A stretch of 64,000 bases of DNA, taken from assembly GCA_000991405.1 (NCBI GenBank), contig LBRL01000001.1:222172-286171 (forward strand), given 5' to 3'. Below the pieces are notes generated by a model. It saw only the letters and a list, made by a program, of their open reading frames with translations. It was not told the origin of the DNA and searched no databases. This document shows positions 5,847 through 50,453 of the stretch, piece after piece. The DNA comes from Candidatus Nomurabacteria bacterium GW2011_GWD2_36_14. Lineage in GTDB: Bacteria > Patescibacteriota > Minisyncoccia > Phycocordibacterales > UBA9973. A program made the translations under genes and the position numbers. How positions within the stretch are numbered: position 1 is the stretch's first letter; each line of letters opens with the position of its first letter.

Positions 5847-5942
5847 ATAATGTTTATAACTACTTTACTATATCACAAAATATAGGAAAAAATAAATGGG
5901 GGAGGAAGTATTAAAATTGAGATTTTGTGCTACCATATAAGT

Positions 5943-7937
5943 ATGTATATAGTAACTGTTATTCCAATACAAAAAGGTTTTCAAGGAGAAAATCTAACTT
6001 ACTTCTCTCCTGTCGAAATTCTTCTAGGAAGTATAGTCTCCATCCCTCTCCGATCTAAAACGAGAGACGCTATCGTCATAAATGTAGAGAATGTACGTGA
6101 TTTGAAATTTGATTTGAAAAAAGCAGACTTTCAACTTAAGAAAATAATAAATATCAAAGGTCCTTCCCCTTTTTCTCCAGCCTTCTTCACAGCTTGCGAG
6201 AAAATGAAAGACTACACTGTCAGTAATACAGGCACAATCATCAAATCACTTCTACCCGCTTTATTTCTAGAAAATTTGAAAGATTTGAAACGAGCAAAAA
6301 AAATAGATGAAGAAGCTAAATCCAACAAAGTTGGATCGCCCGACACTAGAGTAGAAGTGTTTAGGGAAAATATCAAACAAGAGAAATTAATTTTCCAAGC
6401 TCTTATTCCTGACCGTATGAGCTGGTATCGAACTCTGATACGAGAAGCTTTCGCAAAGAAGGAGTCAGTGTTCATATGTGTACCAACCCTTTTTGACATA
6501 GAACAATTCACAATCGAACTTACAAAGGGTATTAGCCAGTACGTCTTCTCCTTCCATGGAGACTTGAGCAAGAAGACACTTATAAATACATATAACTCTT
6601 GCATGGAAGAAACTCATCCAATACTTATCATCGGTACTGGCATGTTCCTATCTATTCCTCGAGAAGATATCCGGACAATTATAATCGAACATGAAAATTC
6701 AGATTCATATAAACAATTTTCTCGTCCGTTTCTCGACATCCGCACTTTCGCAGAGATCCTTTCATCTGTAAATAAAGTTAAGTTAATCTTTGGCGATACA
6801 CTTCTTCGTCCTGATACACTCTATAGACACGATGAAGGAATCCTAGGAGAAGTCGCTTCACCTCTCTTCCGTCTTCCACAAGCTGAGAGGCAAATGGTAG
6901 TAGATATGCGAGAGCAAGTCGACGACAAAGGAGTAAAATCTTTCACTGTATTATCCGATACAACAAAGAAAATGATTGCTTATGCTCTAGAGCACCATGA
7001 ATCCGTCCTTCTCTTCACTGTCCGTAAGGGATTGGCGGGAGTTACTGTATGTCATGATTGTGGATATACTCTTCTCTGTCCTACATGTTCTACTCCTGTC
7101 GTACTTTATGGTTCCAAGCAGAGAAATGCTACAAAGATTGTAAACTCCCGTATCTTCATGTGCAATAAATGTGGGTACAAAGATACAACCGAAGTCAGAT
7201 GTGTAAATTGTCAAAGCTGGAATCTTACCCCTCTGGGTATAGGAACAGATAGAGTATATGAAGAAGTGAAAAGTTTGTACCCCAATGCTAAAATAATCCA
7301 AATAGATAAAGAGACTATCACTTCCAACAAGGAAGCTAGAGGGAAAATGGCTGAATTCTATAAAAATCCCGGAAGCATACTCATAGGTACTGAAATGGTC
7401 TTCTCTTATATCAATACCGAAGTCACCCACAGCGCTATAGTCTCACTTGATGGGCTTCTATCTATACCAAGCTTCAATATCACACAAAAGATTCTTCATA
7501 TAATGGAGAAGCTCCACGAGACGACGAAACGCAATCTCATAATTCAAACTCGCATTCCGGAGAATCCAATACTAGAACATATACTAAACGGCAACGTCTT
7601 ACCTCTTTATCGTGAAGACTTAAAAGAAAGGAAACAATTTGGATACCCACCATTCAAAAGACTTATCAAGATAACCTTTGGAGGTTCTGCCAGTGAGACA
7701 GAGAAGGCACGTGCACACATCGATTCATTACTTGGTGGATATGAGCCACAGATATTTAGCGCCTTCATAGGCAAAGTAAAAGGTCAGTACACTACAAACA
7801 CCGTCATTAAAATAGACCCAAATCTCTGGCCACTACCTATAGACGACAAAAGCATATCAAATACTCACCTTAGAGAAAGTCTACGTAGCCTTCCTCCTGC
7901 ATTTTCTATAAATGTAGACCCCGAAGATTTACTGTAG
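5943..7937 (+). CDS. priA: Primosomal protein N' (PriA) homolog with degenerate ATPase motifs
   Basis: The N-terminus is a 3'-DNA-binding-domain-like VTVIPIQKGF...YFSPV. A Cys-rich zinc-binding region follows (CHDCGY..CPTC....CNKCGY...CVNC). Walker A (GSGKT) is absent and DEEH is replaced by IEHEN. Confidence 0.6.
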   Translation: MYIVTVIPIQKGFQGENLTYFSPVEILLGSIVSIPLRSKTRDAIVINVENVRDLKFDLKKADFQLKKIINIKGPSPFSPAFFTACEKMKDYTVSNTGTIIKSLLPALFLENLKDLKRAKKIDEEAKSNKVGSPDTRVEVFRENIKQEKLIFQALIPDRMSWYRTLIREAFAKKESVFICVPTLFDIEQFTIELTKGISQYVFSFHGDLSKKTLINTYNSCMEETHPILIIGTGMFLSIPREDIRTIIIEHENSDSYKQFSRPFLDIRTFAEILSSVNKVKLIFGDTLLRPDTLYRHDEGILGEVASPLFRLPQAERQMVVDMREQVDDKGVKSFTVLSDTTKKMIAYALEHHESVLLFTVRKGLAGVTVCHDCGYTLLCPTCSTPVVLYGSKQRNATKIVNSRIFMCNKCGYKDTTEVRCVNCQSWNLTPLGIGTDRVYEEVKSLYPNAKIIQIDKETITSNKEARGKMAEFYKNPGSILIGTEMVFSYINTEVTHSAIVSLDGLLSIPSFNITQKILHIMEKLHETTKRNLIIQTRIPENPILEHILNGNVLPLYREDLKERKQFGYPPFKRLIKITFGGSASETEKARAHIDSLLGGYEPQIFSAFIGKVKGQYTTNTVIKIDPNLWPLPIDDKSISNTHLRESLRSLPPAFSINVDPEDLL

Positions 7938-36842: not shown

Positions 36843-37802
36843 TTACTCCCACTCAAATCCCCTTCCAAAGTGTCCCCAAGTGCAAGTATCGCGAAATTTG
36901 ACTTGGTCTAATTTCAAGTACTCATGTATACCTCTTGGAGTGAGATCGTAGCCAGATATTTCCGACTCTTGCCCATCTATGACAGCTACCGCCATGACGG
37001 GCTCTTCTTGCCCTATAGCATAAGCGAGCTTTGTATAGACTTCTTTAGCATTATTCTTCTTCAGTAGTTCTACTGCTATCTTGCGAGCCATATAAGCTCC
37101 AGAGCGGTCAACCTTCGTATCATCCTTCCCCGAGAAGGAGCCTCCGCCTATCGTTATTTCTGGACCATAATTATCTACTATTAGCTTTCTTCCCGAGAGG
37201 CCTGTGTCTGCGTCAAATCCTCCCAAGGTCCATTCGCCTGCTGGATTTATAAGATATTTATCAGACTCAATAATACTTTTTACAAGTTCTAGTAATTTAT
37301 CGTTTTTTGTATTTTGAAAGCTAGCGACAACTGTAGTGACCACTCCATCCTTCACTGTTACTTGCGTCTTGCCATCATACGGATAAACTTCAAATATCTT
37401 TTGGCACAAATTCCGAGCAAGGTGGTACTCAAGTGGTAGGTATGAGTCCGTCTCACCTGTAGCATATCCTTTCATAATTCCCTGATCGCCAGCTCCACCA
37501 GTGTCTACACCTTGGGCTATTTGCGGACTTTGTAAAACAATATTTGAAATAATTTTAAAATCTTTACCAACTATATCTTTCACAACTTGCTCTATGTCTG
37601 GGTTTGCTTTTGAAGTTACCTCACCATTTATAGTTACAAGTCCATGCCCACCCATTACTTCTATTGCACAACGACTACTCTTGTCGCCATCTAGATATGC
37701 GTCTAATATACTGTCTGCAATAAAATCACATATTTTATCTGGATGCATTGGACTCACAAACTCTGCTGTCTTTATACTCATGCTTGATTCTTGGCCGAAC
37801 AT
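36843..37802 (-). CDS. metK: S-adenosylmethionine synthetase
   Basis: HPDKICDFIADSILDA..., GGGSFSGKDDTKVDRSGAYMAR. Confidence 0.85.
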   Translation of the reverse strand: MFGQESSMSIKTAEFVSPMHPDKICDFIADSILDAYLDGDKSSRCAIEVMGGHGLVTINGEVTSKANPDIEQVVKDIVGKDFKIISNIVLQSPQIAQGVDTGGAGDQGIMKGYATGETDSYLPLEYHLARNLCQKIFEVYPYDGKTQVTVKDGVVTTVVASFQNTKNDKLLELVKSIIESDKYLINPAGEWTLGGFDADTGLSGRKLIVDNYGPEITIGGGSFSGKDDTKVDRSGAYMARKIAVELLKKNNAKEVYTKLAYAIGQEEPVMAVAVIDGQESEISGYDLTPRGIHEYLKLDQVKFRDTCTWGHFGRGFEWE

Positions 37803-37869
37803 TTTTAATAAAATGTTTTAGGCTTAAATTAAAAAATTCTCTATTAAGAGAAAAGATATAGATGACTAG

Positions 37870-37992
37870 TCTTATCTTTCCACCGCGCCTTGCCGTAGCT
37901 TTATGCGTAGGCAGGTTTGTTGGCTGGATTTAGCACCTTGCTTTAGTAGGTTGCTGATGGGTCATTGAGCCAGTTGCTCTCGCCATACTCCT
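37870..37992 (-). promoter_or_regulatory. SAM-I (S-box) riboswitch in the metK leader
   Basis: Reverse complement reads UUAUCAGGAG..GGCGAGAGCAACUGGCUCAAUGACCCAUCAGCAACC...AAGGUGCUAAAUCCAGCC...GGAAAGAUAAGA. P1 pairs UUAUC/GAUAAG. Downstream there is a UUCUCU-UAAU-AGAGAA-U6 terminator-like hairpin. Confidence 0.8.
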
Positions 37993-38108
37993 GATAATTA
38001 ACTATTTAGTTGTAGATAGATTATAGCATAATATTAAAAATTATCTATTTCAGGGTCATTTTACTTTTCTCCCCTTTTTTGTTAATATACGGAAGTGAGT
38101 TTAAACAT

Positions 38109-38183
38109 TCCGTGGTAGCTCAGCGGTAGAGCGATCGCCTGTTAAGCGATTGGTCGTAGGTTCGATCCCTACCCACGGAGCCA
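38109..38183 (+). tRNA. tRNA-Asn (anticodon GUU), CCA encoded
   Basis: Acceptor TCCGTGG/CCACGGA, D-arm GCTCAGCGGTAGAGC, anticodon loop CTGTTAA, T-arm GTAGGTTCGATCCCTAC. Confidence 0.9.
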
Positions 38184-39737
38184 GACAGGACAAAGGGACT
38201 CAAAAGAGTCCTTTTGTCGTTTATTAGTAACTGTTTTATTTAGTTCGAAAATCTTTTGAGCATCTATTTTTTCTTGAACTCTCTTAGATAGGACCTCAAC
38301 AGGTTTCTTTAGTAACGGTATGACTTTTTCGTCTTTTAACATCAAGTTCGAAAAAATATGAGATAAAAGTAATCTTCGTTCTTCAGGACTTCTTTTTTCA
38401 TATATTTCTCTTGCTCTAAAAGCAAGATCTAATATATTTAACCAAATTTCAAAATATTTTGTTTCTACATTTTTTATTCTTGATATTTGTTCTTGTATCT
38501 CTGATTGTTCTTGATTTATTTCTTTTTGTTTTTTCTCCCAACCTTCAGTACTAATTTTTTGATCAAGTCTATCATTGTAGAGTATATCTAGTCGACTCTG
38601 TAGTTGAATATAACGAGCATTAAGAGTGTTTAGAGTGTTCTCTTTGTATTCTATCTCTTGAGCATGATTTGTTTTAATTTTGGCTTTTATAGCCTCAGCT
38701 TCTTTTTCTGTAATATTCTCAAAAAACTTGAAAACTCCGAAAAGCTGTTCCTCAATTTTCTTCTCTGGAGTATATGGTTTTTGAGTGCAGTCTTTATAAT
38801 GGTTACAATGATAATACACAATTCCTTTCTTTATCTCCGCTGTAATAGTACAGTTACATTCTCCACATTTCATCATCTTTCTAAATTGGAAACTATGTTT
38901 GCTGTAGGTAGGAGCTAGATGACCCCTTCTCACACTCTGGGCTTTATCAAATAGTTCTTTTGTGATTATAGGCTCATGCTTTCCTCCTGAGTGAAGTATA
39001 CTATTCCATCTCATAGCTCCGTAATAGAATGGTTCATTTAGAAGGTCTTCTATTCTATTTTTGGCTGGTTTATTACCTGCACGAGTTCTAAATCCTTCAG
39101 TATAAAGTTTTTGCCTCAATGCTTCCATCGAATAGTTACCACTGGCATACATTTCGAAAGCCTTTTTAATAAATGGAGCTACTTCTTCATCAATTACATG
39201 AATTTTGTGCCCTTTATCTCCAATTGTTTTGTACCCAATAGGAGGCTTAGTTGGAAGCCACCCCTGAGCTAATTTTTCCACTTGACCTTTCTTAACTTCC
39301 TCAGAAAGATTAGATATAAACTTTTTAGCTAACACAATTTCAATATCCCAACGAAACTTTTCATCAGATTTGGCATTCTTATGAAGAATAAGATTTTGTT
39401 TTACGAAGTGTATCTTTCTTTCTAAATCTTCATCTATCCAGTCATTAGCAAATACAGCTTCTTTTAAGTTACGAGTTAAACGATCCACCTTTTCAACTAT
39501 TAGATTCTTAATGTCATTTTTCTCTATAAATGACATCATTTCTGCGAATACTTTTCTCTGTTTTGCTCCACTAGCACTCTCGGCCACAGCAAATACTTTT
39601 ACATTTGTAATTCCTTTTCTATTGGCATATTCAGAGAGTAATTTCTCCTGTGAAGGAAGAGAATAACCTGTTTCTTCTTGTTCTTTTGAAGAAACTCGGC
39701 AATATAGCACAGAATTATTTATATTAGAGGTTTTCAT
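38169..39737 (-). CDS. Large serine recombinase (integrase); the last 5 codons overlap the tRNA-Asn 3' end
   Basis: N-terminal catalytic YCRVSSKEQ; C-terminal Cys-rich zinc-ribbon and coiled-coil typical of large serine recombinases. Confidence 0.8.
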   Translation of the reverse strand: MKTSNINNSVLYCRVSSKEQEETGYSLPSQEKLLSEYANRKGITNVKVFAVAESASGAKQRKVFAEMMSFIEKNDIKNLIVEKVDRLTRNLKEAVFANDWIDEDLERKIHFVKQNLILHKNAKSDEKFRWDIEIVLAKKFISNLSEEVKKGQVEKLAQGWLPTKPPIGYKTIGDKGHKIHVIDEEVAPFIKKAFEMYASGNYSMEALRQKLYTEGFRTRAGNKPAKNRIEDLLNEPFYYGAMRWNSILHSGGKHEPIITKELFDKAQSVRRGHLAPTYSKHSFQFRKMMKCGECNCTITAEIKKGIVYYHCNHYKDCTQKPYTPEKKIEEQLFGVFKFFENITEKEAEAIKAKIKTNHAQEIEYKENTLNTLNARYIQLQSRLDILYNDRLDQKISTEGWEKKQKEINQEQSEIQEQISRIKNVETKYFEIWLNILDLAFRAREIYEKRSPEERRLLLSHIFSNLMLKDEKVIPLLKKPVEVLSKRVQEKIDAQKIFELNKTVTNKRQKDSFESLCPVWLRG

Positions 39738-39825
39738 AATTGTATTTTAACTTATTTTTATAATTTATTATAATCTTTTTATTTAGTCTTATTAGTATGA
39801 CCTTAAGTCATGTATAAATTTACTG

Positions 39826-40188
39826 TTAGTCATATGGACCCTGTGACTTTAAGTCACTTGGTTTAGTAGCCCAATCCTTTGAATGCGTAAGATAGTACTG
39901 ATTACTGACCCATTGTCCTCTACTTTTTGTTTTGGTTATTTTTATAAATCCATATTTTTCTAAGATAGGGAGATGTCTAATAACTGTTCTTGGGTTTATG
40001 TGCAATTCTTCTGATATTAGTACCTCTGATGGGAATGCAATTCTAGTCTTGCTGTTTGAGTGTCTTTTTAGGCAAAGATAGATAGAAGTCCCTATGGGTC
40101 CTATAAGTTTTGCATATTGGTCTATAAATACATTACCCATCTTAAACCAACCTCCATTTTTTGTTTTTATATATTTCAGCTCATTCAT
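39826..40188 (-). CDS. Winged-HTH protein resembling the RepA_N / replisome-organizer N-terminal domain
   Basis: FIDQYAKLIGPIGTSIYLCLKRHSN...ISEELHINPRTVIRHLPILEKYGFIKI. Confidence 0.5.
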   Translation of the reverse strand: MNELKYIKTKNGGWFKMGNVFIDQYAKLIGPIGTSIYLCLKRHSNSKTRIAFPSEVLISEELHINPRTVIRHLPILEKYGFIKITKTKSRGQWVSNQYYLTHSKDWATKPSDLKSQGPYD

Positions 40189-40195
40189 AAATTTA

Positions 40196-40468
40196 TTAAA
40201 TATTAGAATCTAGAGTTGATTCCCTAGGAGCTGACACTAGGGAATCAACTTTAAGTTCCAATTTTTCTTTTTGTTTATCTTCATAATCAAACTTTGCAAG
40301 CAAGTCAAAAAAAGATGAAAGTTCATTCAACTCTTGAATATTTAATTCTTCTTCTGTTGAGCTATCTAATCTCATTGTTAAAATACTGACGACATATTTT
40401 TTCAATCGTCTTAGATAAGGTAAAATTCTTTTTCTGAGATAACTCAGAAAGTTTCTCGTGTAGATCAA
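40196..40468 (-). CDS. Hypothetical protein (90 aa)
   Basis: ORF only. Confidence 0.35.
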   Translation of the reverse strand: MIYTRNFLSYLRKRILPYLRRLKKYVVSILTMRLDSSTEEELNIQELNELSSFFDLLAKFDYEDKQKEKLELKVDSLVSAPRESTLDSNI

Positions 40469-40647
40469 CCACTATACGAATTTGCTTCGTAATTCTTCTT
40501 CTTTTTGCGTGACAAATTATCTTTACCATTTAATAATTATCTCATCACTTATTACTGGTGGTAACTTTCTTTTACCTTCACTCTATATTCACGCAATGTA
40601 AAAAAATAACCCTATTTAATAAGGTTATTTTTACTTGTGGATAAGTA

Positions 40648-41313
40648 CTACTTAATAATTGAGATGGAAAAAATGTATTTATTAAAACAATAGCCAGAAC
40701 CAGCAGGAATAATTAAATTATTTTCTTGCTCAAATTTATCTTCAAAAGATTTGTTTATATTTTTAATAGCAGTAGAAACACTTCGTTCTTCTGAATATCC
40801 AGCTTCTTCTGTTAGTTTAGACATCGTTTTTGGTGATCCTTTTGACAACAATTTTAATATTTCTAGTTTTTTATCACTAACTTTTATTGAATTTTTTGAG
40901 TCTTCCTTAAGAAAAATCAGACCTCGTAAGTCTATACAAACTTTTTGTTTATTATCTTTTTTTGTATACTTTTGTAAAGTAATTGGATTATCTTCTATTT
41001 GATTTTTAAGTAATTCAATTTTTTCTTTTGCTATGCTGGGGGCAATTCTTCTAATTAGTAAATCATCACCTATATTCTCTTCAGAAAAATATTGCTGTTT
41101 ATCTATTAGGATCAGTTTTTCAAGTACTTTCGATAAATTATTTAAGTCTTGCATAGTAACACCATAAGCATTCAATGAATAAAGGGGTATTCTAGTATTA
41201 GAAGAAAAACCAGGAAAACCTTTTTGGTAATTTTCAATAAGGTTTACAACTTGTAACATTTTATCACAGTCTTCTTTTGTTAGTTTAGGTGTATTGATAA
41301 TATATTCTTCCAT
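40648..41313 (-). CDS. DNA-binding protein with C-terminal OmpR/PhoB-type winged helix, no receiver domain
   Basis: VSDKKLEILKLLSKGSPKTMSKLTEEAGYSEERSVSTAIKNINKSF. Confidence 0.45.
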   Translation of the reverse strand: MEEYIINTPKLTKEDCDKMLQVVNLIENYQKGFPGFSSNTRIPLYSLNAYGVTMQDLNNLSKVLEKLILIDKQQYFSEENIGDDLLIRRIAPSIAKEKIELLKNQIEDNPITLQKYTKKDNKQKVCIDLRGLIFLKEDSKNSIKVSDKKLEILKLLSKGSPKTMSKLTEEAGYSEERSVSTAIKNINKSFEDKFEQENNLIIPAGSGYCFNKYIFSISIIK

Positions 41314-41861
41314 ATTAAAGATAATCTCATTTTTTTAGGTTTTTGTCGACAATTTTTTATTTAATTGAGTCAAAGAAATGCGACCTTTTGCGACCCATTA
41401 TATTTATCGATATTTTATAAGACTCTTTAATCTAATAATTTCTTATTGGAATTAAATATACTTCCACAAAATATCTTGTAAATAAATGACATTCTGATCA
41501 TACCCATACTAAAATACCGAGTTTTGCCTAGTCCTAAAATGCCACCTTTTGCCACCCACTCTTCCCGCCTTTTCCCACCCCTTTTCACCTCTAATACATC
41601 AGACTTTTTCAGACTTTTTATAAAAGAATCTATTTATTGTATTTGTCGACAAAAAGAGCTATTATAAAAATACAACGCCTAAACCAGAAATGGCATGGCT
41701 ACATAGGAAACCCACGCAAATAGTAATGGCCTCACAGTCATCACCATTTGCGTGGGTCCATATTCGAAAGAGTATGGGGTGTTCTCGAAAGAGGATATCA
41801 GATGGTCTGTGGGGCCTTTACTGTCTTCATAACCATATTATAAATTAAAAACCCACGCAAA
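41314..41861. promoter_or_regulatory. AT-rich noncoding region with palindromes and direct repeats (candidate operator/iteron-origin region of the element)
   Basis: TTGTCGACAA palindrome twice (about 41341 and 41643). AAACCCACGCAAA twice, forming a 12-bp inverted repeat at 41710-41762. A CCACC(T)TTT pyrimidine-repeat tract. Confidence 0.5.
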
Positions 41862-42848
41862 ATGAAAAAAATACAAATAATTTGTTTAATTGTTTTTTGT
41901 TTTCTTTCTTTTAGTATCGCCCGTGCAGAAACTTTGATTATAAAATCAGTGGATAAAAGAATAGAAGATATTGAAAAATCTCGAGAGAAACTTCAAAAAG
42001 ATATTGAAAATAATTATAAACAAGTTCAAGCTGAATTAAAAAGTTTAAGTGCAAGAATAGACACTAATATAAAAAGTGAATTTTATTGTGTATTACCAAC
42101 TCAAACTTGCACGGAATCTATCTATCAAGGTATTAGAGGAACTGCCATATCGAGTGGTCTTATTCCAGATGCTGGTCAACTTGCTCAATGCAGAGCTAAG
42201 ATTGATGAATATAATACAAAATTACAGGAATATAATAAATGTTTTCAAGATTGGCAAAATAAAAAGATTGGAGATTCGGCTCAAAAAGAATACGATTATC
42301 AATTGCAAGTATATGAATTAAAATCACAATTAGCCTGTATGGATAAAGAAGGACACTATTCGTCTTTCAATAAAATAACTAAACAATGTGAGTGTGTAGA
42401 AGGTTCAACATTCGTCAACGGAAAATGCATAAATCGTATAGATAATCTACTTATGTGCGTAAAAACTTTTGGTCCATTATCTCATTATGATTACGACAAA
42501 GCTGGTTGTGTATGTGATGAGGGTAGTAAATTAGATCTCGAAAAAGATCTATGTGTTGCTGAAACAGAAAAAGTAGTACCTCCCCCAGTAAAAGAAAAAT
42601 CTCCCTATAAGAATAAATTTCAGGAAATTTTACAACAAAAGGAAACTGAACAACCCTTAAAACCCTCTCAAGGGCTTAAAGAAAGTCCCAAGAGCATAAT
42701 TACTGTTGTAGAGGAGAAAGTACCTTCACAGGCTGAAATTACCCCAAATACTTCGCATGATATACAACCTCCAGCTATTACAGGTCCATCAAATGTAACA
42801 TTCTGGCAAAAAATTAAAAAAAACTTCTTGAAAATTAAGTTTTGGTAA
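41862..42848 (+). CDS. Secreted Cys-rich protein with N-terminal coiled-coil (signal peptide)
   Basis: Signal peptide MKKIQIICLIVFCFLSFSIARA and multiple C..C pairs. Confidence 0.5.
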   Translation: MKKIQIICLIVFCFLSFSIARAETLIIKSVDKRIEDIEKSREKLQKDIENNYKQVQAELKSLSARIDTNIKSEFYCVLPTQTCTESIYQGIRGTAISSGLIPDAGQLAQCRAKIDEYNTKLQEYNKCFQDWQNKKIGDSAQKEYDYQLQVYELKSQLACMDKEGHYSSFNKITKQCECVEGSTFVNGKCINRIDNLLMCVKTFGPLSHYDYDKAGCVCDEGSKLDLEKDLCVAETEKVVPPPVKEKSPYKNKFQEILQQKETEQPLKPSQGLKESPKSIITVVEEKVPSQAEITPNTSHDIQPPAITGPSNVTFWQKIKKNFLKIKFW

Positions 42849-42858
42849 AAATACTTTT

Positions 42859-43122
42859 ATGAAAATTAACCTATTATTTTGGATATTTATACTAATAGCT
42901 TTCATTGGAACATTTTTATATTATCTAGGAGAAACAAGGAAGAATAATATCGGTGAGGTCATTAAGTTTTCTGGAGGAATTATTACATTTGGTATTCTAA
43001 TATCCTCATTCTTTTTATTAGAATGGAAGGCGTCATTCTTGCTTATTATTGGCGAATTCACAATAATCAGTTTTTTATCAACTTTACTTGTTGAATCTAT
43101 GACAAAGAGACGTATAAATTAA
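42859..43122 (+). CDS. Small membrane protein (3 TM)
   Basis: ORF with hydrophobic helices. Confidence 0.4.
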   Translation: MKINLLFWIFILIAFIGTFLYYLGETRKNNIGEVIKFSGGIITFGILISSFFLLEWKASFLLIIGEFTIISFLSTLLVESMTKRRIN

Positions 43123-43127
43123 ATATT

Positions 43128-43541
43128 ATGGAAAAATTAAAGGGGCTGATAATTAGTGTATTACAAGAAGAACAAACTAATCATATGAATAAACAAAAAA
43201 GAATCAAGGAGTTGGTATTGGCTATCGTTTTAACAATTTTACCAATTTTTATATTTATAATAATGCCTGCATTAGAAGATAAATACTTTGACTTGTTTTC
43301 TGGGCGTTTGATGTACCTAAGTCAAGATTATTATTTTTCTTTTTCCCCACTTTTTATCTTTGATTTGCCTTACTTTTTTACCCCAATAATATCAGCTTTG
43401 GCAGTATGGTTTTGTCTTAAAATTAGAAAAAGTATAGAAAATAGAAGTTCATTTTTTAACTACCTTAATCTCGTCTTAATTGTTTTGAATAGTGTTTTTT
43501 CCTTATATTCCTTATGGTTTTTATTGTTATTTTATAAATAA
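43128..43541 (+). CDS. Membrane protein (4 TM)
   Basis: ORF with hydrophobic helices. Confidence 0.4.
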   Translation: MEKLKGLIISVLQEEQTNHMNKQKRIKELVLAIVLTILPIFIFIIMPALEDKYFDLFSGRLMYLSQDYYFSFSPLFIFDLPYFFTPIISALAVWFCLKIRKSIENRSSFFNYLNLVLIVLNSVFSLYSLWFLLLFYK

Positions 43542-43597
43542 AAATCTAAAATCGTAGTATTATTTGATAATTTATTATTTTCGTATACAATATACAT

Positions 43598-44572
43598 ATG
43601 GCAAAAGAAGAAAAGCAGATTATCGAGAATAATTCAAAAAATGGTGTAAATGAAAAGATACCAAATAATGAAGATTCTGCTCAAAATAAGAAAGTCGAAG
43701 AAGAAATATCTCCTCTTAAAAAATTATTAAAGAAGAGTGATGTTTTGCTTATGTTATACCCAAAAGACATAAATGGAAATTTTTCAGCCAGCATTGATCC
43801 TGAAGATGAAATTTCTATTTATAAACTTTTGAAGGAAAAGAAGGAGAAGAAAAAAGAACTTTTAATTTTATTAGATACAAGTGGTGGTAATGTATATTCG
43901 GCGGTTAAAATAATGGATACATTAAGAACCCAATATAATCAAATAAATATTGCAATACCGCAGGAAGCTAAAAGTTCTGGAACTATGATGTGTTGTGGTG
44001 CTAATAATTTAATAATGAGTTCTATCTCTGAACTTGGACCATTAGATAAGCCAATGATTCATCCTAATGATGAGACAGCAAGAATCTCTGCTTTAGATAT
44101 TATTAAATCTATCGATGGCATGTTGGATACTGCACAACAAAGAGAAAAAGATTTTGCCAAAGAGGTAAATAATGATTTTGGAATACCTATTAAACAAAGT
44201 TTGCAATTAGCAAGTGAATCAATCTCTAAACTAATATCACCTATGTTGTGTAGAGAAGATGTAAAAATCTATAATCAAGCCCAAAGATTACTTGTTATAG
44301 CCCAGAAATACGCCACTGAACTATTAGACGCACATATGTTAAAATATATTGATCGTAAAAAACTTAAAGAGAGAATTATTGATATGACTACTAGGCAGTT
44401 GATATGGGCATATCCTGACCATAGTTTTGCTATTAGACGAGATGAATTGAGAGAATGGTTTTTTATTGTAAAAAATTCTGAAGATGTTGATTATTGGGAC
44501 GAACTTTGGGATAAATTTTATCAAAATATAGGTTATAAAAATAGTAAATTGATTAAATTTTTAGATAATTAA
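43598..44572 (+). CDS. ClpP/crotonase-fold serine peptidase, SDH (serine dehydrogenase proteinase)/S49-like
   Basis: ILLDTSGGNVYSAVKIMDTLR...IPQEAKSSGTMMCCGANNLIMSSISELGPLDKP matches the lhTpGG...A.SaGT.ia.aAdei.M....lGpiDP pattern. Confidence 0.55.
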   Translation: MAKEEKQIIENNSKNGVNEKIPNNEDSAQNKKVEEEISPLKKLLKKSDVLLMLYPKDINGNFSASIDPEDEISIYKLLKEKKEKKKELLILLDTSGGNVYSAVKIMDTLRTQYNQINIAIPQEAKSSGTMMCCGANNLIMSSISELGPLDKPMIHPNDETARISALDIIKSIDGMLDTAQQREKDFAKEVNNDFGIPIKQSLQLASESISKLISPMLCREDVKIYNQAQRLLVIAQKYATELLDAHMLKYIDRKKLKERIIDMTTRQLIWAYPDHSFAIRRDELREWFFIVKNSEDVDYWDELWDKFYQNIGYKNSKLIKFLDN

Positions 44573-44583
44573 GATATAATTTT

Positions 44584-44790
44584 ATGAACATTGCAATATT
44601 AACAAAATTTAATATGGATGAAAAAGATACACTACCCTTAGATAGCGGTAATAACGATGAATTTCCTATGAGTGTTAGCGAAAAATTAGTAAGAAATGAA
44701 GTGAGAAAATTGACTGAAAATTCTAAAGAAATAAAAAAACTAAAGGAACAAATTGAGAAAAAGAATAACAAAAATAAGAGTGATTTATAA
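44584..44790 (+). CDS. Small hypothetical protein
   Basis: ORF only. Confidence 0.3.
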   Translation: MNIAILTKFNMDEKDTLPLDSGNNDEFPMSVSEKLVRNEVRKLTENSKEIKKLKEQIEKKNNKNKSDL

Positions 44791-44847
44791 TATTCTAATT
44801 TAATAGGTCGATAAGTTTAATATATTTAAGTAATTTTAATAAAAAAT

Positions 44848-45045
44848 ATGTCAGGTAAAAATAGGATAATTATAAAAAAATCAACAAATAAACAAAAATA
44901 TGTTGTATTAAAATCAGCTAATAATAAGACTATAGCAAATACGGAAACATATAAAAGTAATCAGAGTGTAGATAAAGCAGTTAAAGCTCTAAAAAAGATT
45001 GTTAAAAATGCTATCATTGTAGATCAGACTAAAAAAGAGAAGTAG
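44848..45045 (+). CDS. YegP/DUF1508-family protein
   Basis: IIIKKSTNKQKYVVLKSANNKTIANTETYKSNQSVDKAVKALKK. Confidence 0.6.
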   Translation: MSGKNRIIIKKSTNKQKYVVLKSANNKTIANTETYKSNQSVDKAVKALKKIVKNAIIVDQTKKEK

Positions 45046-45149
45046 AATTATTAAACTAATAGTGATCTTATTTCAGCTAATGCGATATTTGGGAAAGGAT
45101 ATTCTTTGGCCCAATCAATAGTTATAAAATCGTCCGTTAGGGCGAGCCA

Positions 45150-45554
45150 ATGAAAGAGGCAGTTATAAGTTTGATAAGTGTCATAGTGGGAGCCATTATA
45201 GGTCTAATGGGTACTTTTTTATCTTCATACTTTCAGAATAAGATTTGGAAGAAAGAAAAACAGATTGAACATTTAAAAGCTAAAAAAGAAAATCTAGAAA
45301 ATAAATACGAGAAATATATCAAAGAGTTATATCTTTCTATGGAAAAGAATGGCAATTTTGATGCTGAACTGTTTCTAGAGGGTCTATACTCTTTCCCGAA
45401 AAATGTCAAAGACTCAATTTATAAACTAACTAAATTAAAAACAGGTAAAGAAAATCTGGAGGAACTTAAGCAAGCTAATTGGTGTATAATCGAAGAAATG
45501 AAAAAATCATTAGTTGAAATTGATATCGAAATAAAAAAGAAAATTGATGATTAA
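45150..45554 (+). CDS. Membrane-anchored coiled-coil protein
   Basis: N-terminal TM helix followed by a coiled-coil. Confidence 0.4.
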   Translation: MKEAVISLISVIVGAIIGLMGTFLSSYFQNKIWKKEKQIEHLKAKKENLENKYEKYIKELYLSMEKNGNFDAELFLEGLYSFPKNVKDSIYKLTKLKTGKENLEELKQANWCIIEEMKKSLVEIDIEIKKKIDD

Positions 45555-45677
45555 CTTGTGCAAATCATAATCCGAGAATCTTCGCATGTTAGGAGTAGCA
45601 AGGATGGTCCTTGCTACTCTGTTACTATTCTTCTTTATACCTAAATGATTTTTTATATTATGTTATAATATACTCAT

Positions 45678-45875
45678 ATGAAATATTTTAAAAAAGCACT
45701 GTTTATTTGTTTTATAGTCTCACTTATTTTCTCTTTGTTTTGGACAATCGGAAAGTTTTTTAATTCTGATATGCCTATGCTTGATAGACAAACTTATTCT
45801 ATAATGTCTGGATTAAAATACCTTACAGCCATTGCTTTATATATAGCTTGGAGAGTTACACCAGACCATAAGTAA
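45678..45875 (+). CDS. Small 2-TM membrane protein
   Basis: ORF with hydrophobic helices. Confidence 0.35.
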   Translation: MKYFKKALFICFIVSLIFSLFWTIGKFFNSDMPMLDRQTYSIMSGLKYLTAIALYIAWRVTPDHK

Positions 45876-45980
45876 GTATTAGTTAGTTGTTGTGAATTAT
45901 CAAGGATGGTCTTTGATAGTTTCAGCAAGCAAATGAATTTTAAAAAATAAAACTCGACAAAGTCTGAAACAATGCCGAGT

Positions 45981-46367
45981 TTATTTTGCAAAAATTTTTT
46001 TTGTAATTAGATAACTCACGATCGACAATATGACAGTGATAAATATTTGTGCAATTAAATATTTTAAGTTTATATATTCAACTAGTAAATATAAAAATAT
46101 ACTATTTGCACAAAGCAGTACTCCTGACATAATAAAATACCGGAGAATCTGTTTGGGAATTTCTTTTTTGTCTTTATTATCAAAAGTCCAATACTTCTGA
46201 AACAAAAAACTGGATGTATAAGATAAGATAGAACCAATTGCCGCAGATATCGGATACCAAATTTCAACGAACTCAGTTAAACAATAAAGCGTTAGATAAT
46301 ATAATCCTACACATATAATTCCACTTATACCAAATTTTGCAATCTTTGGGATTTTTTTAGTTTTCAA
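45981..46367 (-). CDS. GtrA-family membrane protein
   Basis: 4 TM helices. FQKYWTF resembles the GtrA FxxNRxWTF motif. Confidence 0.55.
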   Translation of the reverse strand: MKTKKIPKIAKFGISGIICVGLYYLTLYCLTEFVEIWYPISAAIGSILSYTSSFLFQKYWTFDNKDKKEIPKQILRYFIMSGVLLCANSIFLYLLVEYINLKYLIAQIFITVILSIVSYLITKKIFAK

Positions 46368-46525
46368 TATAGCCTCCTTTTTTCTTCATACTAATTGATA
46401 ATTCCCCAAAAAGCAATTTTTAATCGCGTTTCTCTTTTAAAAAGTTCCAACTTCATTCTAAATTTGAAACCTCAATTTTAACCCTATAATTCAAAACCCC
46501 TACCCTTTTATCAAATTCTAACCTA

Positions 46526-46936
46526 TTGACTTTACAAGTTGAAAAATGTAATGTGAAAGAAAAATTGTCTAACTCTAAAATAAAATATGTTATGAAAAGT
46601 ATTCTTGTAATTACCATTCTAGACAGAAATGAAGATCTAATTGAGCAATTCATGGCCGTAGGCATAGAAACACACATCTCAGTATTTTTCTATAGACCGG
46701 AGAATGAAAGAAATCTATTAGATCGTATTAAAAAAAGTCGTCCAGCTATGATAATAATGGACGGCAGGATACATCCATTAACACTGGAAAATATCTACGA
46801 CAGTATTTTCAATACTCTTGGTGTATATGACATGGATTCTAATATCTATGCCATTAAAAAAGAAGTTCATCTACCAGGAGTAATTAATACAAAAATAGAA
46901 AATTTTGTAAAAATATGGGAAGAGTCGCGAAAGTGA
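46526..46936 (+). CDS. Hypothetical protein
   Basis: ORF, followed by a hairpin that shares GAGTAGCAAGGA with the hairpin at 45590. Confidence 0.35.
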   Translation: MTLQVEKCNVKEKLSNSKIKYVMKSILVITILDRNEDLIEQFMAVGIETHISVFFYRPENERNLLDRIKKSRPAMIIMDGRIHPLTLENIYDSIFNTLGVYDMDSNIYAIKKEVHLPGVINTKIENFVKIWEESRK

Positions 46937-47087
46937 CTCTTTTTGTTTTTATCTTACCTAAAGAGTAGCAAGGACGATTCTCGTTACTCTTTCTTTCCAC
47001 CCTAGTATCTATATTTTTCAAAAGGTATACACTTAAGACAAATCTACACAAATTCTAAATTTAATTTAACCTACTAAATTTATTATT

Positions 47088-47321
47088 ATGAAAAATGTAA
47101 CAATTTGTCTCTCTTGTGCAGATGTGTGCAAGAATGGAGTTTTTGTTAAAAGCGAAAAAGAAATAGCTAAATTATGGTTGCTGACATTTCGTAAACCTAA
47201 AGCAGATATAGATATAGTTATCTATGTTTGCCCAGAATGTTACAGATCCTTTCCAAGGGAATATTTGGAAGCGATAAAAATGAAATATTATGAGAAACAG
47301 CTAGAACAAACTTCAGGATGA
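47088..47321 (+). CDS. Small zinc-ribbon protein
   Basis: CLSC...CPEC Cys pairs. Confidence 0.4.
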   Translation: MKNVTICLSCADVCKNGVFVKSEKEIAKLWLLTFRKPKADIDIVIYVCPECYRSFPREYLEAIKMKYYEKQLEQTSG

Positions 47322-47801
47322 AGTTTGTTCTTTCATTTAATTTAACCAATTTACTTGGGTAAATTTAAAGGGCAACTTTTGTTGCCCTAGGGGTTTATAC
47401 TTTTTTTAATAATTTTAATGAAATTTTTTCAATTAATTCAATTCTTGGACTAGGATCAAGTTGTGAGACATTAAAGCCTTCGGGTAAATCACCAGAATAA
47501 ATTTCCTGATAAAATTTAAGAATTTTTTGAGAAACAATAGGATACATTCTAATAATTTCATCGGAGAATTTTTCAATTCCTAAATTGGTGACAATAGGTT
47601 TTCTGTCATTTTCTGTATAAGCAAAATATGTCTTTTCCCCATTTAAACCCTTACTAAAAATAATGATTCCTTCACTAGTTTCAGTTGTTCCTATAAATTT
47701 AGTTTTTTAAAAAGTGAATATTTGGTTTAATTATAATCTTTTATTTTATAACTAGCAATACAAGAGTTTACGACTCCTCTTTTGATTGCTATACTAATAC
47801 T

Positions 47802-48011
47802 ATGCAAAAAACAGCTACAAAAATCTTCATTTATTCATCAATCGTTTTCGGAATTATCGGAATACTGGTTGTTGTGACTGGTTCTGGACCAGATGCTCCA
47901 GATTCAAATATTAGTAAAATATTGATTAGACTTCTATTTGCAACGGTATTTGTCATCTTGCCTTCATTCGCATTAAGTATTGCTAGCAAATACTTGAACG
48001 ATAAATCTTAA
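47802..48011 (+). CDS. Small 2-TM membrane protein
   Basis: ORF only. Confidence 0.35.
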   Translation: MQKTATKIFIYSSIVFGIIGILVVVTGSGPDAPDSNISKILIRLLFATVFVILPSFALSIASKYLNDKS

Positions 48012-48094
48012 GCTTCGTGTTTGTTTCCAAAAAGGTTTCTACTTAATCCAAAATCGGAATAAGTGAATTCTACTTTTTTTGCTATAATACAATA

Positions 48095-48541
48095 ATGAAA
48101 CATATTAACTTAAAAGGTTCTTGGATTATTAAGGCGCCTATTGATCAAGTTTTCAAAATAGTTACGGACTTTGAAAATATACCAAAGAATTTCCCAACTG
48201 TTGCAGAGTCATTGGTTATTACCAAGAAAGATGGCAATAAATTGGAAATTGATGCCCAAGTAAAGTCTTTCGGCACAGTGTTCCCCGTCAAAATGAAAAC
48301 AGAAATTATTCCTGAGAAAGGGTATGTTTCTGATAATGAGAATTCGAAATTGGGTATATCTGGTCATGAAGAATTTATGATGGAAGAGACAGAAGAAGGC
48401 ACGAGGATTAATTATACCTATGGAGTTGATATTCACAATAGATGGCTAAGAATAATAGCCAGACCACTTCTAAGTTGGTACTCAATGAAATTCTGGGAAA
48501 AGGCTTTTATTGATAGATTAAAAAAGATTTGTGAAAACTAG
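48095..48541 (+). CDS. SRPBCC (Bet v1/START-like, polyketide-cyclase-type) domain protein
   Basis: The IKAPIDQVFKIVTDFENIPKNFP pattern and its size. Confidence 0.5.
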   Translation: MKHINLKGSWIIKAPIDQVFKIVTDFENIPKNFPTVAESLVITKKDGNKLEIDAQVKSFGTVFPVKMKTEIIPEKGYVSDNENSKLGISGHEEFMMEETEEGTRINYTYGVDIHNRWLRIIARPLLSWYSMKFWEKAFIDRLKKICEN

Positions 48542-48581
48542 CAGGCTTAGTATAAGCTTGAACCTGTGATACAATTATATT

Positions 48582-49430
48582 ATGAAAAAAATACTAACTT
48601 ATATATCTATATTTATCGTTATTATAATCGTGATTTTCGTCTTTATTTCAAGGAATAAAAGGTTAAACATAGTTATACAAAATCCTCCAGCAAGAGAAGC
48701 TATTGCCATGTGCTATCAATATTCAAAAGAGACTTCGCGTGGTTTCTATGATCAGGCTTGGCTGAAAATGAGTATTTTGGGAGATAAGGTAACCGGTGAA
48801 TACCGAAACCTTCCAGCCGAGAAAGATAGCAAGGTTGGAAAATTTGCAGGGAATGTTGGACCAATGGATCCTAAGATTAGCGGACGTATTGCAGATGTTT
48901 GGTGGGATTCTTTGGCTGAAGGTATGAATGTAAGGGAACAATTAAATATTGAATTTGGTGAAGGATCTGCTGTCGCTTTGTTTGGTGAGATGATAGATAG
49001 AGGAGATGGAGTATATGTATATAAAGATGTAACTAAGCTTACTTCTGGATTCCAGATGTCACAAACAGATTGCAGTGCACTAGATGACAAAATTATTGTT
49101 GAAAAATATATTCGTGACAATGTTAAAACCATTGTGCCAGAAAAGCCTGTTTTAGGCGGTTCATGGTATATAACTTCTGTAAACATAAATCCTTCTACAA
49201 AAACTGGAAAGATGACATATGAAGATGGTCATATACAGGGCAATAAAAGTTTTAGTTATATTAGAAACAATAATGAAGTCAAAATTAACTTAATGGAGAG
49301 TATACCACCAGAATCTAAAGCTCCAGTAATTAAAGGACCAGTTGCCTGTACTATGGATGCCAAACAATGCCCCGATGGTTCTTATGTAGGACGCACTGGC
49401 CCCAATTGTGAATTCGTCTGCCCACGATAA
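48582..49430 (+). CDS. N-terminally anchored secreted protein with C-terminal Cys cluster
   Basis: ORF with an N-terminal TM helix; C-terminal CTMDAKQCPDGS...CEFVC. Confidence 0.4.
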   Translation: MKKILTYISIFIVIIIVIFVFISRNKRLNIVIQNPPAREAIAMCYQYSKETSRGFYDQAWLKMSILGDKVTGEYRNLPAEKDSKVGKFAGNVGPMDPKISGRIADVWWDSLAEGMNVREQLNIEFGEGSAVALFGEMIDRGDGVYVYKDVTKLTSGFQMSQTDCSALDDKIIVEKYIRDNVKTIVPEKPVLGGSWYITSVNINPSTKTGKMTYEDGHIQGNKSFSYIRNNNEVKINLMESIPPESKAPVIKGPVACTMDAKQCPDGSYVGRTGPNCEFVCPR

Positions 49431-49491
49431 TATGTATTTAAATAATAAAAAGCACCTCGCGAGAGGTGCTTTTTATATATTCAGATTAGTA

Positions 49492-50256
49492 TTAGTGTGC
49501 TACTGCCCCATGAGGATCCTTACTGAAAGTTTTACTGACCATACGAGCAATAATGATTATTGCTAAGATTAGAAGGATGAACAAGAACCACTGAAAGACT
49601 GAACTTGGCATAAAGCTTCCTGAACCTTTAACTGACAATGCTGTAACTCCGTTGGTATCATAAACTACAGGCTGTGTGTTGTATGCTCCATAAGCATTGG
49701 CTAGCATTACACCTTGACTCTTACTATTGGCATCATAGTTCACAAACTGACCTGTGTTGCCTTGTACTCCAGTATTCTTGCCATATGAGGAAGTAACCGC
49801 ACTTGCTCCAAGGACAGAAGCTCCTTGAGTATTACCGACATTGGATCCAGAATTTACATATTGAACTTGCTGTTGAGGTGAAGCAACATACTGAGTAGTA
49901 GTTGTACTAGGTGCTGTTACGTACTTTACAGTAGGAACTTCTACATACTTAACAGTTGGGACTTCTACGTACTTGATTTGAGTCTGAGGCTGTGCTTGTA
50001 CGTAAGTATAAGGTTGCTGTATGGCATAGTTATTTTGCTGTTGTGGTACTGTATATGAGTATTGCTGTTCTGTGTAATTATAATATTGATTAGAACCACC
50101 AACTCCAGTATAACCACGATTATATGTAGGATAAGAATATCCAACATTGTATCCCATAGGGATAGTCTCAAAGTCAGCAGATGCAAAATTGACTCCAAGG
50201 ACAATAAAAGCAAAAGCTCCGAGTGCTATTAAATTTTTTAATGTTTTATTTTTCAT
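49492..50256 (-). CDS. Secreted low-complexity Q/Y/T/V-rich protein with C-terminal TM anchor
   Basis: Signal peptide, repeats (YVEVPTVKYVEVPTVKYV) and a C-terminal hydrophobic anchor. Confidence 0.45.
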   Translation of the reverse strand: MKNKTLKNLIALGAFAFIVLGVNFASADFETIPMGYNVGYSYPTYNRGYTGVGGSNQYYNYTEQQYSYTVPQQQNNYAIQQPYTYVQAQPQTQIKYVEVPTVKYVEVPTVKYVTAPSTTTTQYVASPQQQVQYVNSGSNVGNTQGASVLGASAVTSSYGKNTGVQGNTGQFVNYDANSKSQGVMLANAYGAYNTQPVVYDTNGVTALSVKGSGSFMPSSVFQWFLFILLILAIIIIARMVSKTFSKDPHGAVAH

Positions 50257-50453
50257 ATGAGTATTATATCATATAAGTATGCCTTTTGTCAATACCCCTT
50301 CACCTTTAATATACGTTGATAAATATAGGTATTTTGCTATCATATATTTACTGAATATTAAAATTTAGAGAAATTTAGCTATTTTGCCCCTTACAGGGCT
50401 GCAATTTATACAAACGGTTTACCTCTTAATAAATCGGGAGTATAATCAAAAAC

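Follow-up and report, generated by a model that had tools for sequence, protein, structure and literature searches.

The stretch of DNA analyzed here (the window) comprises 64,000 nucleotides (nt) of contig LBRL01000001.1 from Candidatus Nomurabacteria bacterium GW2011_GWD2_36_14. Between 38 and 50 kb it carries a tRNA-Asn gene, a convergent gene for a large serine recombinase (LSR), three smaller genes on the LSR strand, a control region that contains a LOOT RNA, and a run of cargo genes on the opposite strand, beyond which lie an AT-rich flank and a block of conserved genes that leads to pepN, rnhB and dnaE (Table 1). An earlier note on this DNA had described an element integrated at the tRNA gene and reaching to 50.3 kb. 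The integrated element and its serine recombinase are present, as domains and attachment (att) sites attest, but the right limit lies at 45147. We consider it highly probable that the element is an integrative unit of 6,966 bp (38182-45147) that encodes the LSR, has its attP within the LSR gene, at the 3′ end, targets tRNA-Asn, and has its integrase gene split by the insertion.

Table 1. Features of the tRNA-Asn locus in the window and corresponding features of related loci. Related loci are designated L and homologous proteins P. aa, amino acids; ORF, open reading frame; TM, transmembrane.
Feature	Coordinates	Strand	Basis and remarks
tRNA-Asn(GTT)	38109..38183	+	ARAGORN; Rfam tRNA 71.5 bits; chromosomal target, B arm of attL
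attL common core GAGC (GCTC on LSR strand)	38178..38181	.	Element/tRNA conservation change; in-frame join; L203/L207 divergence; dyad centre
P′ arm of attachment site	38182..38218	.	Also terminator-like hairpin and conserved ...DSFESLCPVW codons
Terminator-like hairpin, 13 bp	38189-38218		Within LSR codons
LSR, integrated isoform, 522 aa	38169..39737	-	Pfam, PHROG; residues 1-520 from element, R-G-stop from tRNA antisense
120-aa winged-helix protein (HTH_36 / DnaD_N-like)	39826..40188	-	Candidate replication initiator or regulator
Small conserved ORF, 69-90 aa, motif FFDLLAKFDYEDKQKEK	40196..40468	-	Beside LSR in L063, L064, L070, L071, L148
221-aa protein, weak C-terminal winged-helix signal	40648..41313	-	Trans_reg_C E 0.008, HTH_5 E 0.007, both below cut-off
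Divergent control region, LSR-side genes versus cargo	41314..41861	.	Short direct and inverted repeats
LOOT RNA (Rfam RF03000)	41676..41799	+	60.8 bits against gathering score 46.4; full-length match 1-121
328-aa cysteine-rich protein, N-terminal signal/TM segment	41862..42848	+	No Pfam, PHROG or PADLOC match; no homologue in other elements
Two small membrane proteins, 87 aa (42859-43122) and 137 aa (43128-43541)	42859..43541	+	Translations; no family match
324-aa ClpP/SDH-type serine-protease-like protein	43598..44572	+	PF01972 1.9e-6, below cut-off; CLP_protease 23.2 bits
68-aa ORF (44584-44790) and 65-aa DUF1508 protein (44848-45045)	44584..45045	+	DUF1508 3.2e-8
Displaced LSR 3′ end, 30 codons and stop (ALTDDFITIDWAKEYPFPNIALAEIRSLLV)	45051..45147	-	P arm of attR, right end of element
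attR core GAGC	45144-45147		Conservation stop at GCGAGC
AT-rich lineage-specific flank outside att sites	45148..47770	.	134-aa ORF, 65-aa TM ORF, GtrA, 136-aa ORF, 77-aa Zn-ribbon-like ORF
Conserved genes: 69-aa; SRPBCC; 282-aa; 254-aa	47802-48011; 48095-48541; 48582-49430; 49492-50256		Orthologues in relatives
Group I introns after LSR stop	L069 11678-11978; L070 11700-11933; L071 11720-11960		
Group I introns after LSR stop	L072 3909-4111; L108 6002-6191; L137 11702-11937		
LOOT RNA in other elements	L021 4285-4410; L062 8417-8544; L063 6343-6474; L148 2907-3025		
LOOT RNA also in L070, L112, L138, L069, L071, L078, L085, L088, L090, L095, L116			

By its sequence the enzyme is a bona fide LSR. 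Pfam assigns it Resolvase (PF00239, 3.9e-18, residues 10-159), Recombinase (PF07508, 1.6e-15) and Zn_ribbon_recom (PF13408, 1.8e-6) domains, and it falls into an integrase family in PHROG (1.9e-70). Alignment upholds the catalytic serine named in the earlier note: S16 lies in an RVSS motif whose R14-V15-S16 is invariant across 61 homologues. No ORF of the 38-50 kb region has the Phage_integrase domain of a tyrosine recombinase. The identical LSR protein is filed in NCBI under "Candidatus Nomurabacteria bacterium GW2011_GWE2_36_115." Two further observations of the earlier note hold as they were made, namely that the recombinase gene ends 15 nt inside the 3′ end of tRNA-Asn and that a terminator hairpin lies within its codons. 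On the LSR strand the overlap reads TGG CTC CGT GGG TAG (W L R G stop), which is the tRNA acceptor end in reverse complement. Just ahead of this point, the peptide (R)QKDSFESLCP(A)LL recurs in many LSR homologues.

The other end of the element was found by comparison with close relatives. Besides the LSR, blastn gave one further stretch common to the window and L063, and an nhmmer profile of that stretch located one copy per element (window, L062, L063, L064/L065), 6.6-9.2 kb away from the LSR end and facing the same way with respect to the LSR in the four elements; the match in the window covers 45048-45160. Conservation of this motif breaks off at ...AAAATCGTCnGnnAnnGCGAGC (GCGAGC), and on the tRNA side element-specific sequence starts after ...CCCACGGAGC (GGAGC). 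Because both breaks end alike, they define a common core, GAGC, at 38178-38181 and 45144-45147. When the LSR ORF is joined at this core to the far-end sequence, the frame stays open in all four elements and runs into a conserved tail of 29-33 aa: ...CPVWL is followed in the window by ALTDDFITIDWAKEYPFPNIALAEIRSLLV, and the corresponding tails are ALADDFTTIDWAKEYPYPTISLNEIKSLLMLSV in L063, ALADDFRTIDWATEYPYPTISLNEIKSLI in L062 and ALADDFRTIDWATEYPYPTISLGEIKALVS in L064, each closed by a stop codon. The full-length homologues P0090 (548 aa) and P0095 (543 aa) finish with the same tail. With P0090 as the query, tblastn returns two pieces of the window only, one at 39710-38178 (residues 4-516) and one at 45146-45054 (residues 516-546; 74% identity, E 1e-9). 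The attR half-site, which the earlier note had expected near 50.3 kb, is instead this displaced LSR 3′ end.

Changes among the tail codons are mostly synonymous (10 synonymous and 3 replacement between L063 and L062), and the 45.05-45.15 kb motif folded as RNA does no better than shuffles. On both counts we take the tail segment to be coding sequence under protein-level selection, which would imply that the intact gene is regularly reconstituted. By the reconstructed lengths, integration turns a 550-aa LSR into one of 522 aa.

Comparison of four attL/attR pairs, and of one attP/attL pair that is 100% identical, points to a core of 4-5 nt (GAGC/GGAGC) common to attP and attB. The reconstructed attP is partly dyad-symmetric in five of five cases, and the centre of symmetry falls on the core dinucleotide GA; crossover would take place inside the core, probably at this dinucleotide, a position that would fit the 2-bp staggered cut of other serine integrases. 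For the window element the predicted attP junction reads ...AAAATCGTCCGTTAGGGCGAGCCAGACAGGACAAAGGG... (AAAATCGTCCGTTAGGGCGAGCCAGACAGGACAAAGGGACTC) and the predicted attB junction ...CCCTACCCACGGAGCCAATGAAAGAGGCAG... (GATCCCTACCCACGGAGCCAATGAAAGAGGCAGTTATAAG). Probes of 28 and 17 nt with up to 3 mismatches, together with a general repeat search, detected no repeat of the tRNA 3′ end in the window, as is to be expected if the core is only 4 nt long.

We propose that the LSR would pair attP with the extreme 3′ end of tRNA-Asn, where the GAGC core lies at the discriminator, and would exchange strands there. The tRNA sequence up to ...CCCACGGAGC is identical in six relatives, and the gene stays intact after insertion, because only its last bases and trailer would be swapped for matching element sequence, terminator hairpin included. 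The LSR gene would be split in the process, codons 1-520 remaining at attL with a new ending of R-G-stop and the last 30 codons being carried 7 kb off to attR. Since the P′ arm would thus serve at once as tRNA terminator hairpin and as the ...DSFESLCP.LL codons, the unusual conservation of these codons would be explained.

Evidence that such elements move comes from two contigs that hold one related element in both its attP and its attL configuration. The 90% cluster of the window LSR contains P0122 (522 aa, ending ...CPALLRG) and P0123 (556 aa, in which ...CPALL continues as PLINKFRTANW...), identical up to the junction. The contigs that encode them, L207 (P0122, attL) and L203 (P0123, attP), are 100.000% identical over 5,437 nt and part from each other precisely at the end of GCTCC (GGAGC in tRNA orientation), L207 passing into tRNA-Asn and host genes common with the window and L203 into the tail codons and element DNA; their LSR gene is 88.8% identical in nucleotide sequence to that of the window. 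In addition, the two ends of L148 (6,979 nt), a more distant relative that carries full-length P0090 and lacks a tRNA, overlap exactly by 30 nt (k-1 for an assembly at k=31), which indicates a circular 6.95-kb molecule with an intact LSR gene. The plasmid or phage-like nature proposed in the earlier note is addressed weakly by these data: no structural or conjugation gene was found in the element, and the circular relative favors a small episome.

The same contigs bear on the idea that there is no mobile element at all and that the LSR, as a domesticated invertase or resolvase, acts to rearrange the surroundings of tRNA-Asn, with the 45.1-kb motif as its second site. Such an enzyme would agree with the flipped orientation, among relatives, of the segment that contains tRNA-Asn and the 69-aa gene. 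The two cores, however, are direct rather than inverted, the protein has the full set of integrase-type C-terminal domains, cargo is completely different between otherwise near-identical backbones, and the same element occurs free and integrated (L203/L207) and has a circular relative (L148). We regard this idea as extremely improbable.

How far the element extends to the right was also judged from composition and from gene conservation in relatives, which were collected through the neighboring pepN gene (60 loci from metagenome-assembled genomes of Paceibacteria/Nomurabacteria). The guanine-plus-cytosine (GC) content is 0.297 in 38182-45147 and 0.286 in 45148-47770, against a mean of 0.376 and a minimum of 0.35 in 7-kb segments elsewhere; it drops to 0.26-0.31 between 38 and 48 kb and is back to 0.356 from 47771. 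The compositional break anticipated by the earlier note is therefore real, and its AT-rich tract does run to about 47.8 kb, but of the roughly 9 kb of cargo it described only about 3.2 kb lies between the att sites. The presence/absence comparison at tRNA-Asn that it had suggested divides the remainder in two. The genes from 47.8 to 50.3 kb are common to the relatives: the 69-aa, SRPBCC and 282-aa genes have orthologues at 62-82% aa identity and are as conserved as rnhB or pepN, and the 254-aa gene, with orthologues at 39-54% over its full length, lies directly upstream of pepN there, in a conserved chromosomal block that continues with pepN, rnhB and dnaE. Given this conservation, 47.8-50.3 kb is chromosome and not island. 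The genes of 45148-47770, by comparison, have no homologues in about 200 related loci, and the segment has no integrase, LSR tail, LOOT or backbone remnant; it may be a variable hotspot or old relic DNA.

A single 12-kb island with its limits at the tRNA and at 50.3 kb, whose cargo would comprise every AT-rich gene for a secreted or membrane protein, would account for the low GC up to about 47.8 kb and for genes at 45.15-47.77 kb that lack homologues near pepN in relatives. It is nevertheless highly improbable in view of the displaced LSR tail and core at 45051-45147 with no second tail or att remnant further right, the conservation of the 69-aa, SRPBCC, 282-aa and 254-aa genes, the last directly upstream of pepN, and the return of GC to 0.356. 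A composite locus, in which an active 7-kb element lies next to the decayed remains of earlier insertions (45.15-47.77 kb) and the tRNA-Asn flank is an accretion hotspot, is compatible with the 7-kb element proposed here, and we think it possible if somewhat doubtful. The low GC (0.286) and orphan genes of the segment speak for it, as do its three copies of a palindrome (at 45593, 45895 and 46963) and the interval downstream of tRNA-Asn, which varies in all relatives (3.4-4 kb of unrelated DNA before the 69-aa gene in L009 and L013, and different again in L006 and L063). Against it, fragments of an integrase or of a tail, a LOOT RNA and backbone genes are all missing from 45.15-47.77 kb, and since serine integrases do not normally act on an occupied attL, tandem accretion would need extra steps.

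Several points weigh against an element that ends at 45147 and remains mobile. The AT-rich stretch runs on for 2.6 kb past attR. The common core is only 4-5 nt long, the crossover position comes from comparison, and dyad symmetry around GA is modest, with 7-10 of 20 positions in agreement. Neither L203 nor L204 has a terminal overlap or ORF continuity across its ends, and we claim circularity for L148 alone. Neither an empty site nor an excised circle of the window element was found: exact-protein look-ups were made with the LSR, metK and the 134-aa flank gene, and in each of them 24 of 24 long contigs that were read had the integrated arrangement. A scan of JGI metagenomes for all four junction types with a 46-nt degenerate pattern gave 0 hits, and as even attL and attR were missing, the window strain is absent from that collection. 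The reconstructed 550-aa LSR was likewise absent from the protein collection. Even so, the boundaries, the split gene and its conserved tail, the two configurations of a near relative and the existence of a circular relative stand as demonstrated, the architecture is well supported, and we infer that the window copy is still mobile.

What the protein loses on integration can be gauged from the AlphaFold model of the homologue P0090 (548 aa; mean predicted local distance difference test score, 74). In this model the catalytic domain and helix E are followed by the recombinase domain and then by a zinc ribbon and long coiled coil, with beta strands at 272-307, paired long helices at 340-436 and closing strands that end by about residue 470. 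A helix extends to about 490, a disordered linker covers 492-510, and the short low-confidence helices that come last are the tail. Judged by the model, the break spares all canonical LSR domains (catalytic, recombinase, zinc ribbon and coiled coil), which are placed ahead of residue ~490, and removes an appendix rather than a domain. In its integrated form the LSR is therefore likely to have kept its enzymatic competence, having lost just a C-terminal peptide with a DDF-x-T-I-D-W motif. By analogy with the Mx8 and SSV-type integrases (PMC4383910, PMC8371274), a role for the tail in controlling activity or direction seems most likely, and we hypothesize that the long (free) and short (integrated) isoforms constitute a switch.

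The elements have a backbone in common, made up of the LSR, the small conserved ORF, often the HTH_36 protein, and, ahead of the cargo operon, a control region that holds a LOOT RNA; everything else is freely exchangeable cargo. The earlier note had called the 120-aa protein RepA_N-like. Its winged helix is borne out (HTH_36, 29.9 bits, above the cut-off), but Pfam and PHROG scans gave no RepA_N match, DnaD_N scored 22.6 bits against a cut-off of 27, and the PHROG replication-initiator matches are weak (1e-5 to 1e-7). Homologues of this protein adjoin the LSR in L064, L070, L080 and L092. The small ORF next to it has no family match in Pfam or PHROG. To our knowledge recombination directionality factors have no common sequence signature, and it is speculative to name this ORF a candidate for such a factor. 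The OmpR-type label given to the 221-aa protein comes down to a sub-threshold Trans_reg_C signal; the sole match to this protein among the fetched loci is in L068, a contig of the same organism, at 100% identity, and it has no homologue in other elements.

The control region had been read as 550 bp of iterons and palindromes. Short direct and inverted repeats do occur (AAATGCGACCTTTTGCGACCCA twice, AAACCCACGCAAA three times, and TTTTTGTCGACAA palindromes), but the main feature is the LOOT RNA, 63 nt upstream of the first cargo gene. We know of no earlier source for LOOT RNA other than metagenomes, and of no function assigned to it. It is found in 16 of about 26 related elements examined, the divergent L021 and the circular L148 among them, always between attR and the LSR and usually antisense to the LSR, with the first cargo gene starting 40-66 nt further on; a control search of LSR-free relatives, 132 kb in all, gave one match. 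From this distribution LOOT RNA appears to be a recurrent backbone component of these elements. The lone control match (L013 21485-21603) is near the end of its locus and may mark another element.

In the cargo of the window element PADLOC recognized no defense system. The 324-aa protease-like protein matches phrog_21683 (function unassigned) at 5.5e-29 and, weakly, a head-maturation protease. Sister elements carry a DNA methylase and an R.HinP1I-type endonuclease (L062, 4801-6580), a PIF1 helicase and a DUF87/HerA ATPase (L063, 1603-5175), Schlafen/AlbA_2 (5858-6877) and NUDIX (L064), or a reverse transcriptase (RVT_1; L203), and the family may be a vehicle for defense genes in bacteria of the candidate phyla radiation (CPR). 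Directly upstream of the element RVT_1, ARAGORN calls a 78-nt "tRNA-Lys(ttt)" in L203 (2659-2736), L204 (2666-2743) and L207 (762-839); it could be a tRNA-like or retron-type RNA and not a true tRNA.

This cargo also speaks to the suggestion that the element is a small prophage or phage satellite that uses a serine integrase for lysogeny. The LSR matches a PHROG integrase family, the protease-like protein has its weak head-maturation match (E 9e-5), the DUF1508 protein matches a PHROG family of unassigned function, and distant LSR relatives (at most 44% identity) occur in 20-50-kb IMG/VR contigs, some of them ending in tRNAs. PHROG and Pfam scans of the element ORFs, however, recovered no capsid, portal, terminase or tail gene in the 7 kb, IMG/VR holds no member of the close LSR family (at least 57% identity), and sister cargo consists of restriction-modification, helicase/ATPase, Schlafen-like and reverse-transcriptase genes. 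We therefore consider a phage origin of this kind very improbable.

LSR homologues number more than 2000. Among the 120 best, the C-termini are mostly ...LLRG, and many others (...LLPRQGSNLRPID, ...RDSNPH) are translated antisense tRNA as well. The closest (82-90% identity; L062, L063, L064/65) also end inside tRNA-Asn. In 60 JGI loci with a readable LSR 3′ end, the stop codon falls in a convergent tRNA in 41, of which 35 were called by ARAGORN and 6 deduced from an adjoining group I intron. The ARAGORN-called targets are tRNA-Asn (20), -Gln (6) and -Ser (4), with -Arg, -Val, -Ile, -His and -Asp once each; in two of the 35, L096 and L099, the stop is just past the far end of the tRNA, not inside it. 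In the 6 intron loci the group I intron directly follows the LSR stop (Table 1), which is why ARAGORN misses the tRNA; the target would be an intron-containing tRNA-Asn, in whose 3′ exon the LSR still finishes ...LLRG or ...LLRR. This agrees with intron-containing tRNA-Asn genes reported in Patescibacteria (PMC13011429).

Displaced tails are located upstream on the LSR strand in further loci, with element sizes of about 6.5-11.5 kb. Even a 24%-identical LSR, that of L021 (Nomurabacteria GW2011_GWE2_34_25), ends ...CPILLRG in tRNA-Asn. The element family is common in CPR bacteria (Paceibacteria/Nomurabacteria). A P-arm pattern gave 0 hits in IMG/VR. Distant relatives at 30-34% identity (L166, L171, L173/L174, L176; IMG/VR contigs of 11-50 kb) stop inside convergent tRNA-Ala, -Asp, -Gln or -Pro, and tRNA targeting with the int gene lying across the site may extend to real prophages. 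One member stands apart: L149 (28-8591) encodes a full-length 548-aa LSR of the family with a different tail (...AEFHLRTLEQLLSLAR), has no tRNA on the contig, and places the LSR beside a tyrosine integrase and a copper-ATPase/HMA/cupredoxin cluster.

Three observations concern the surroundings. A SAM riboswitch (RF00162, 48.9 bits) lies at 37869-38000 on the minus strand, between metK (36843-37802), which it precedes, and tRNA-Asn. The palindrome of the right flank is 28 nt long (GAGTAGCAAGGATGGTCCTTGCTACTCT and variants; 45593-45620, 45895-45922, 46963-46990), and its copies may be terminators or a small repeat family. The tRNA-Asn segment next to the 254-aa gene and pepN, with the 69-aa gene where present, is in plus orientation in the window, L006 and L013 and in minus orientation in L007, L009, L021 and L047, which suggests repeated inversions around an integration hotspot.

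Large DNA is inserted into genomes mainly with serine integrases, whose natural targets had been taken to exclude tRNA genes. The present family offers dozens of natural attP/attB pairs at the universally conserved tRNA 3′ end, and its att sites can be read straight from a genome because the displaced gene end marks attR. The defined 30-aa change on integration yields two natural isoforms and makes integrase-encoded directionality a testable question. A common small CPR element with restriction-modification, helicase/ATPase, Schlafen-like and reverse-transcriptase cargo comes into view, and the orphan LOOT RNA gains a genomic context. We would go further only tentatively, to a possibility that we rate short of probable: that these enzymes form an LSR clade with the att site in its own 3′ end, specialized for tRNA 3′ ends, in which the change of isoform governs the direction or activity of recombination from within and LOOT is a family regulatory RNA. 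If true, this clade would be abundant in CPR, would reach phage-sized contigs, and would be the serine-family counterpart of the archaeal "all-in-one" module.

The earlier note had called the architecture typical of elements that use a tRNA as attachment site. tRNA targeting is a hallmark of tyrosine integrases, and the position of attP within the integrase ORF had been overlooked; we see in these the two unusual features of the element. Serine integrases are described as not known to use tRNA genes (PMC4383910), and such use is elsewhere said to have "not been reported previously," 14 of 297 predicted cases being in need of experimental proof (PMC7192596). Our literature searches on serine integrases in CPR or at tRNA genes returned no description of this element family. 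The window LSR resembles those of phiC31, Bxb1, A118, TP901-1 and CcrAB in domain order, catalytic serine motif, very short core, imperfectly symmetric attP and int gene at the edge. Those enzymes insert into protein-coding or intergenic sites, whereas the window LSR has inserted at a tRNA 3′ end, a behavior that earlier work regarded as unknown for the family (PMC4383910) or as still to be proven (PMC7192596); it also differs in having attP inside the integrase ORF, and no known directionality factor was recognized in the element. With the tRNA islands found by Islander and TIGER the element shares an intact tRNA at the island edge, an integrase next to the tRNA and exchangeable cargo, but it has a serine integrase, no displaced tRNA fragment, and 4-5 nt in common between its ends. 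Lacking that fragment, such elements escape the tDNA-fragment signature of Islander (PMC4383910). Island finders based on tRNA-fragment repeats will miss them, which constitutes a blind spot.

A gene that changes its C-terminus on integration has parallels in three other systems. Broussard and colleagues reportedly described in 2013 an integration-dependent immunity of mycobacteriophages in which attP lies in coding sequence and the differing C-termini of the free and integrated forms act as a genetic switch; the split gene there is said to be the repressor and the lost tail a degradation tag, whereas in the window the split gene is the integrase itself. Myxophage Mx8 reportedly integrates at a tRNA gene, and the C-terminal change in its integrase is said to be much larger than in the window LSR. 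Mx8 IntP/IntX resembles the window element in having attP inside the integrase ORF, according to 1996 work cited in PMC4383910. Mx8 Int, however, belongs to the tyrosine recombinases, uses arm sites and a long block of identity, and has no relation to the window LSR in sequence or mechanism. The third parallel is with the archaeal "suicidal" integrases of SSV1, pTN3 and pT26-2: as in the window element, the att site is part of the integrase gene, insertion takes place at a tRNA gene, and the integrase gene is thereby partitioned, which makes for a compact "all-in-one" module (PMC8371274). The SSV-type enzymes are tyrosine recombinases (PF16795), described as archaea-only, that are split into inactive N- and C-terminal halves (PMC8371274); the window element, by contrast, encodes a bacterial serine recombinase that loses only a 30-aa appendix after its canonical domains.

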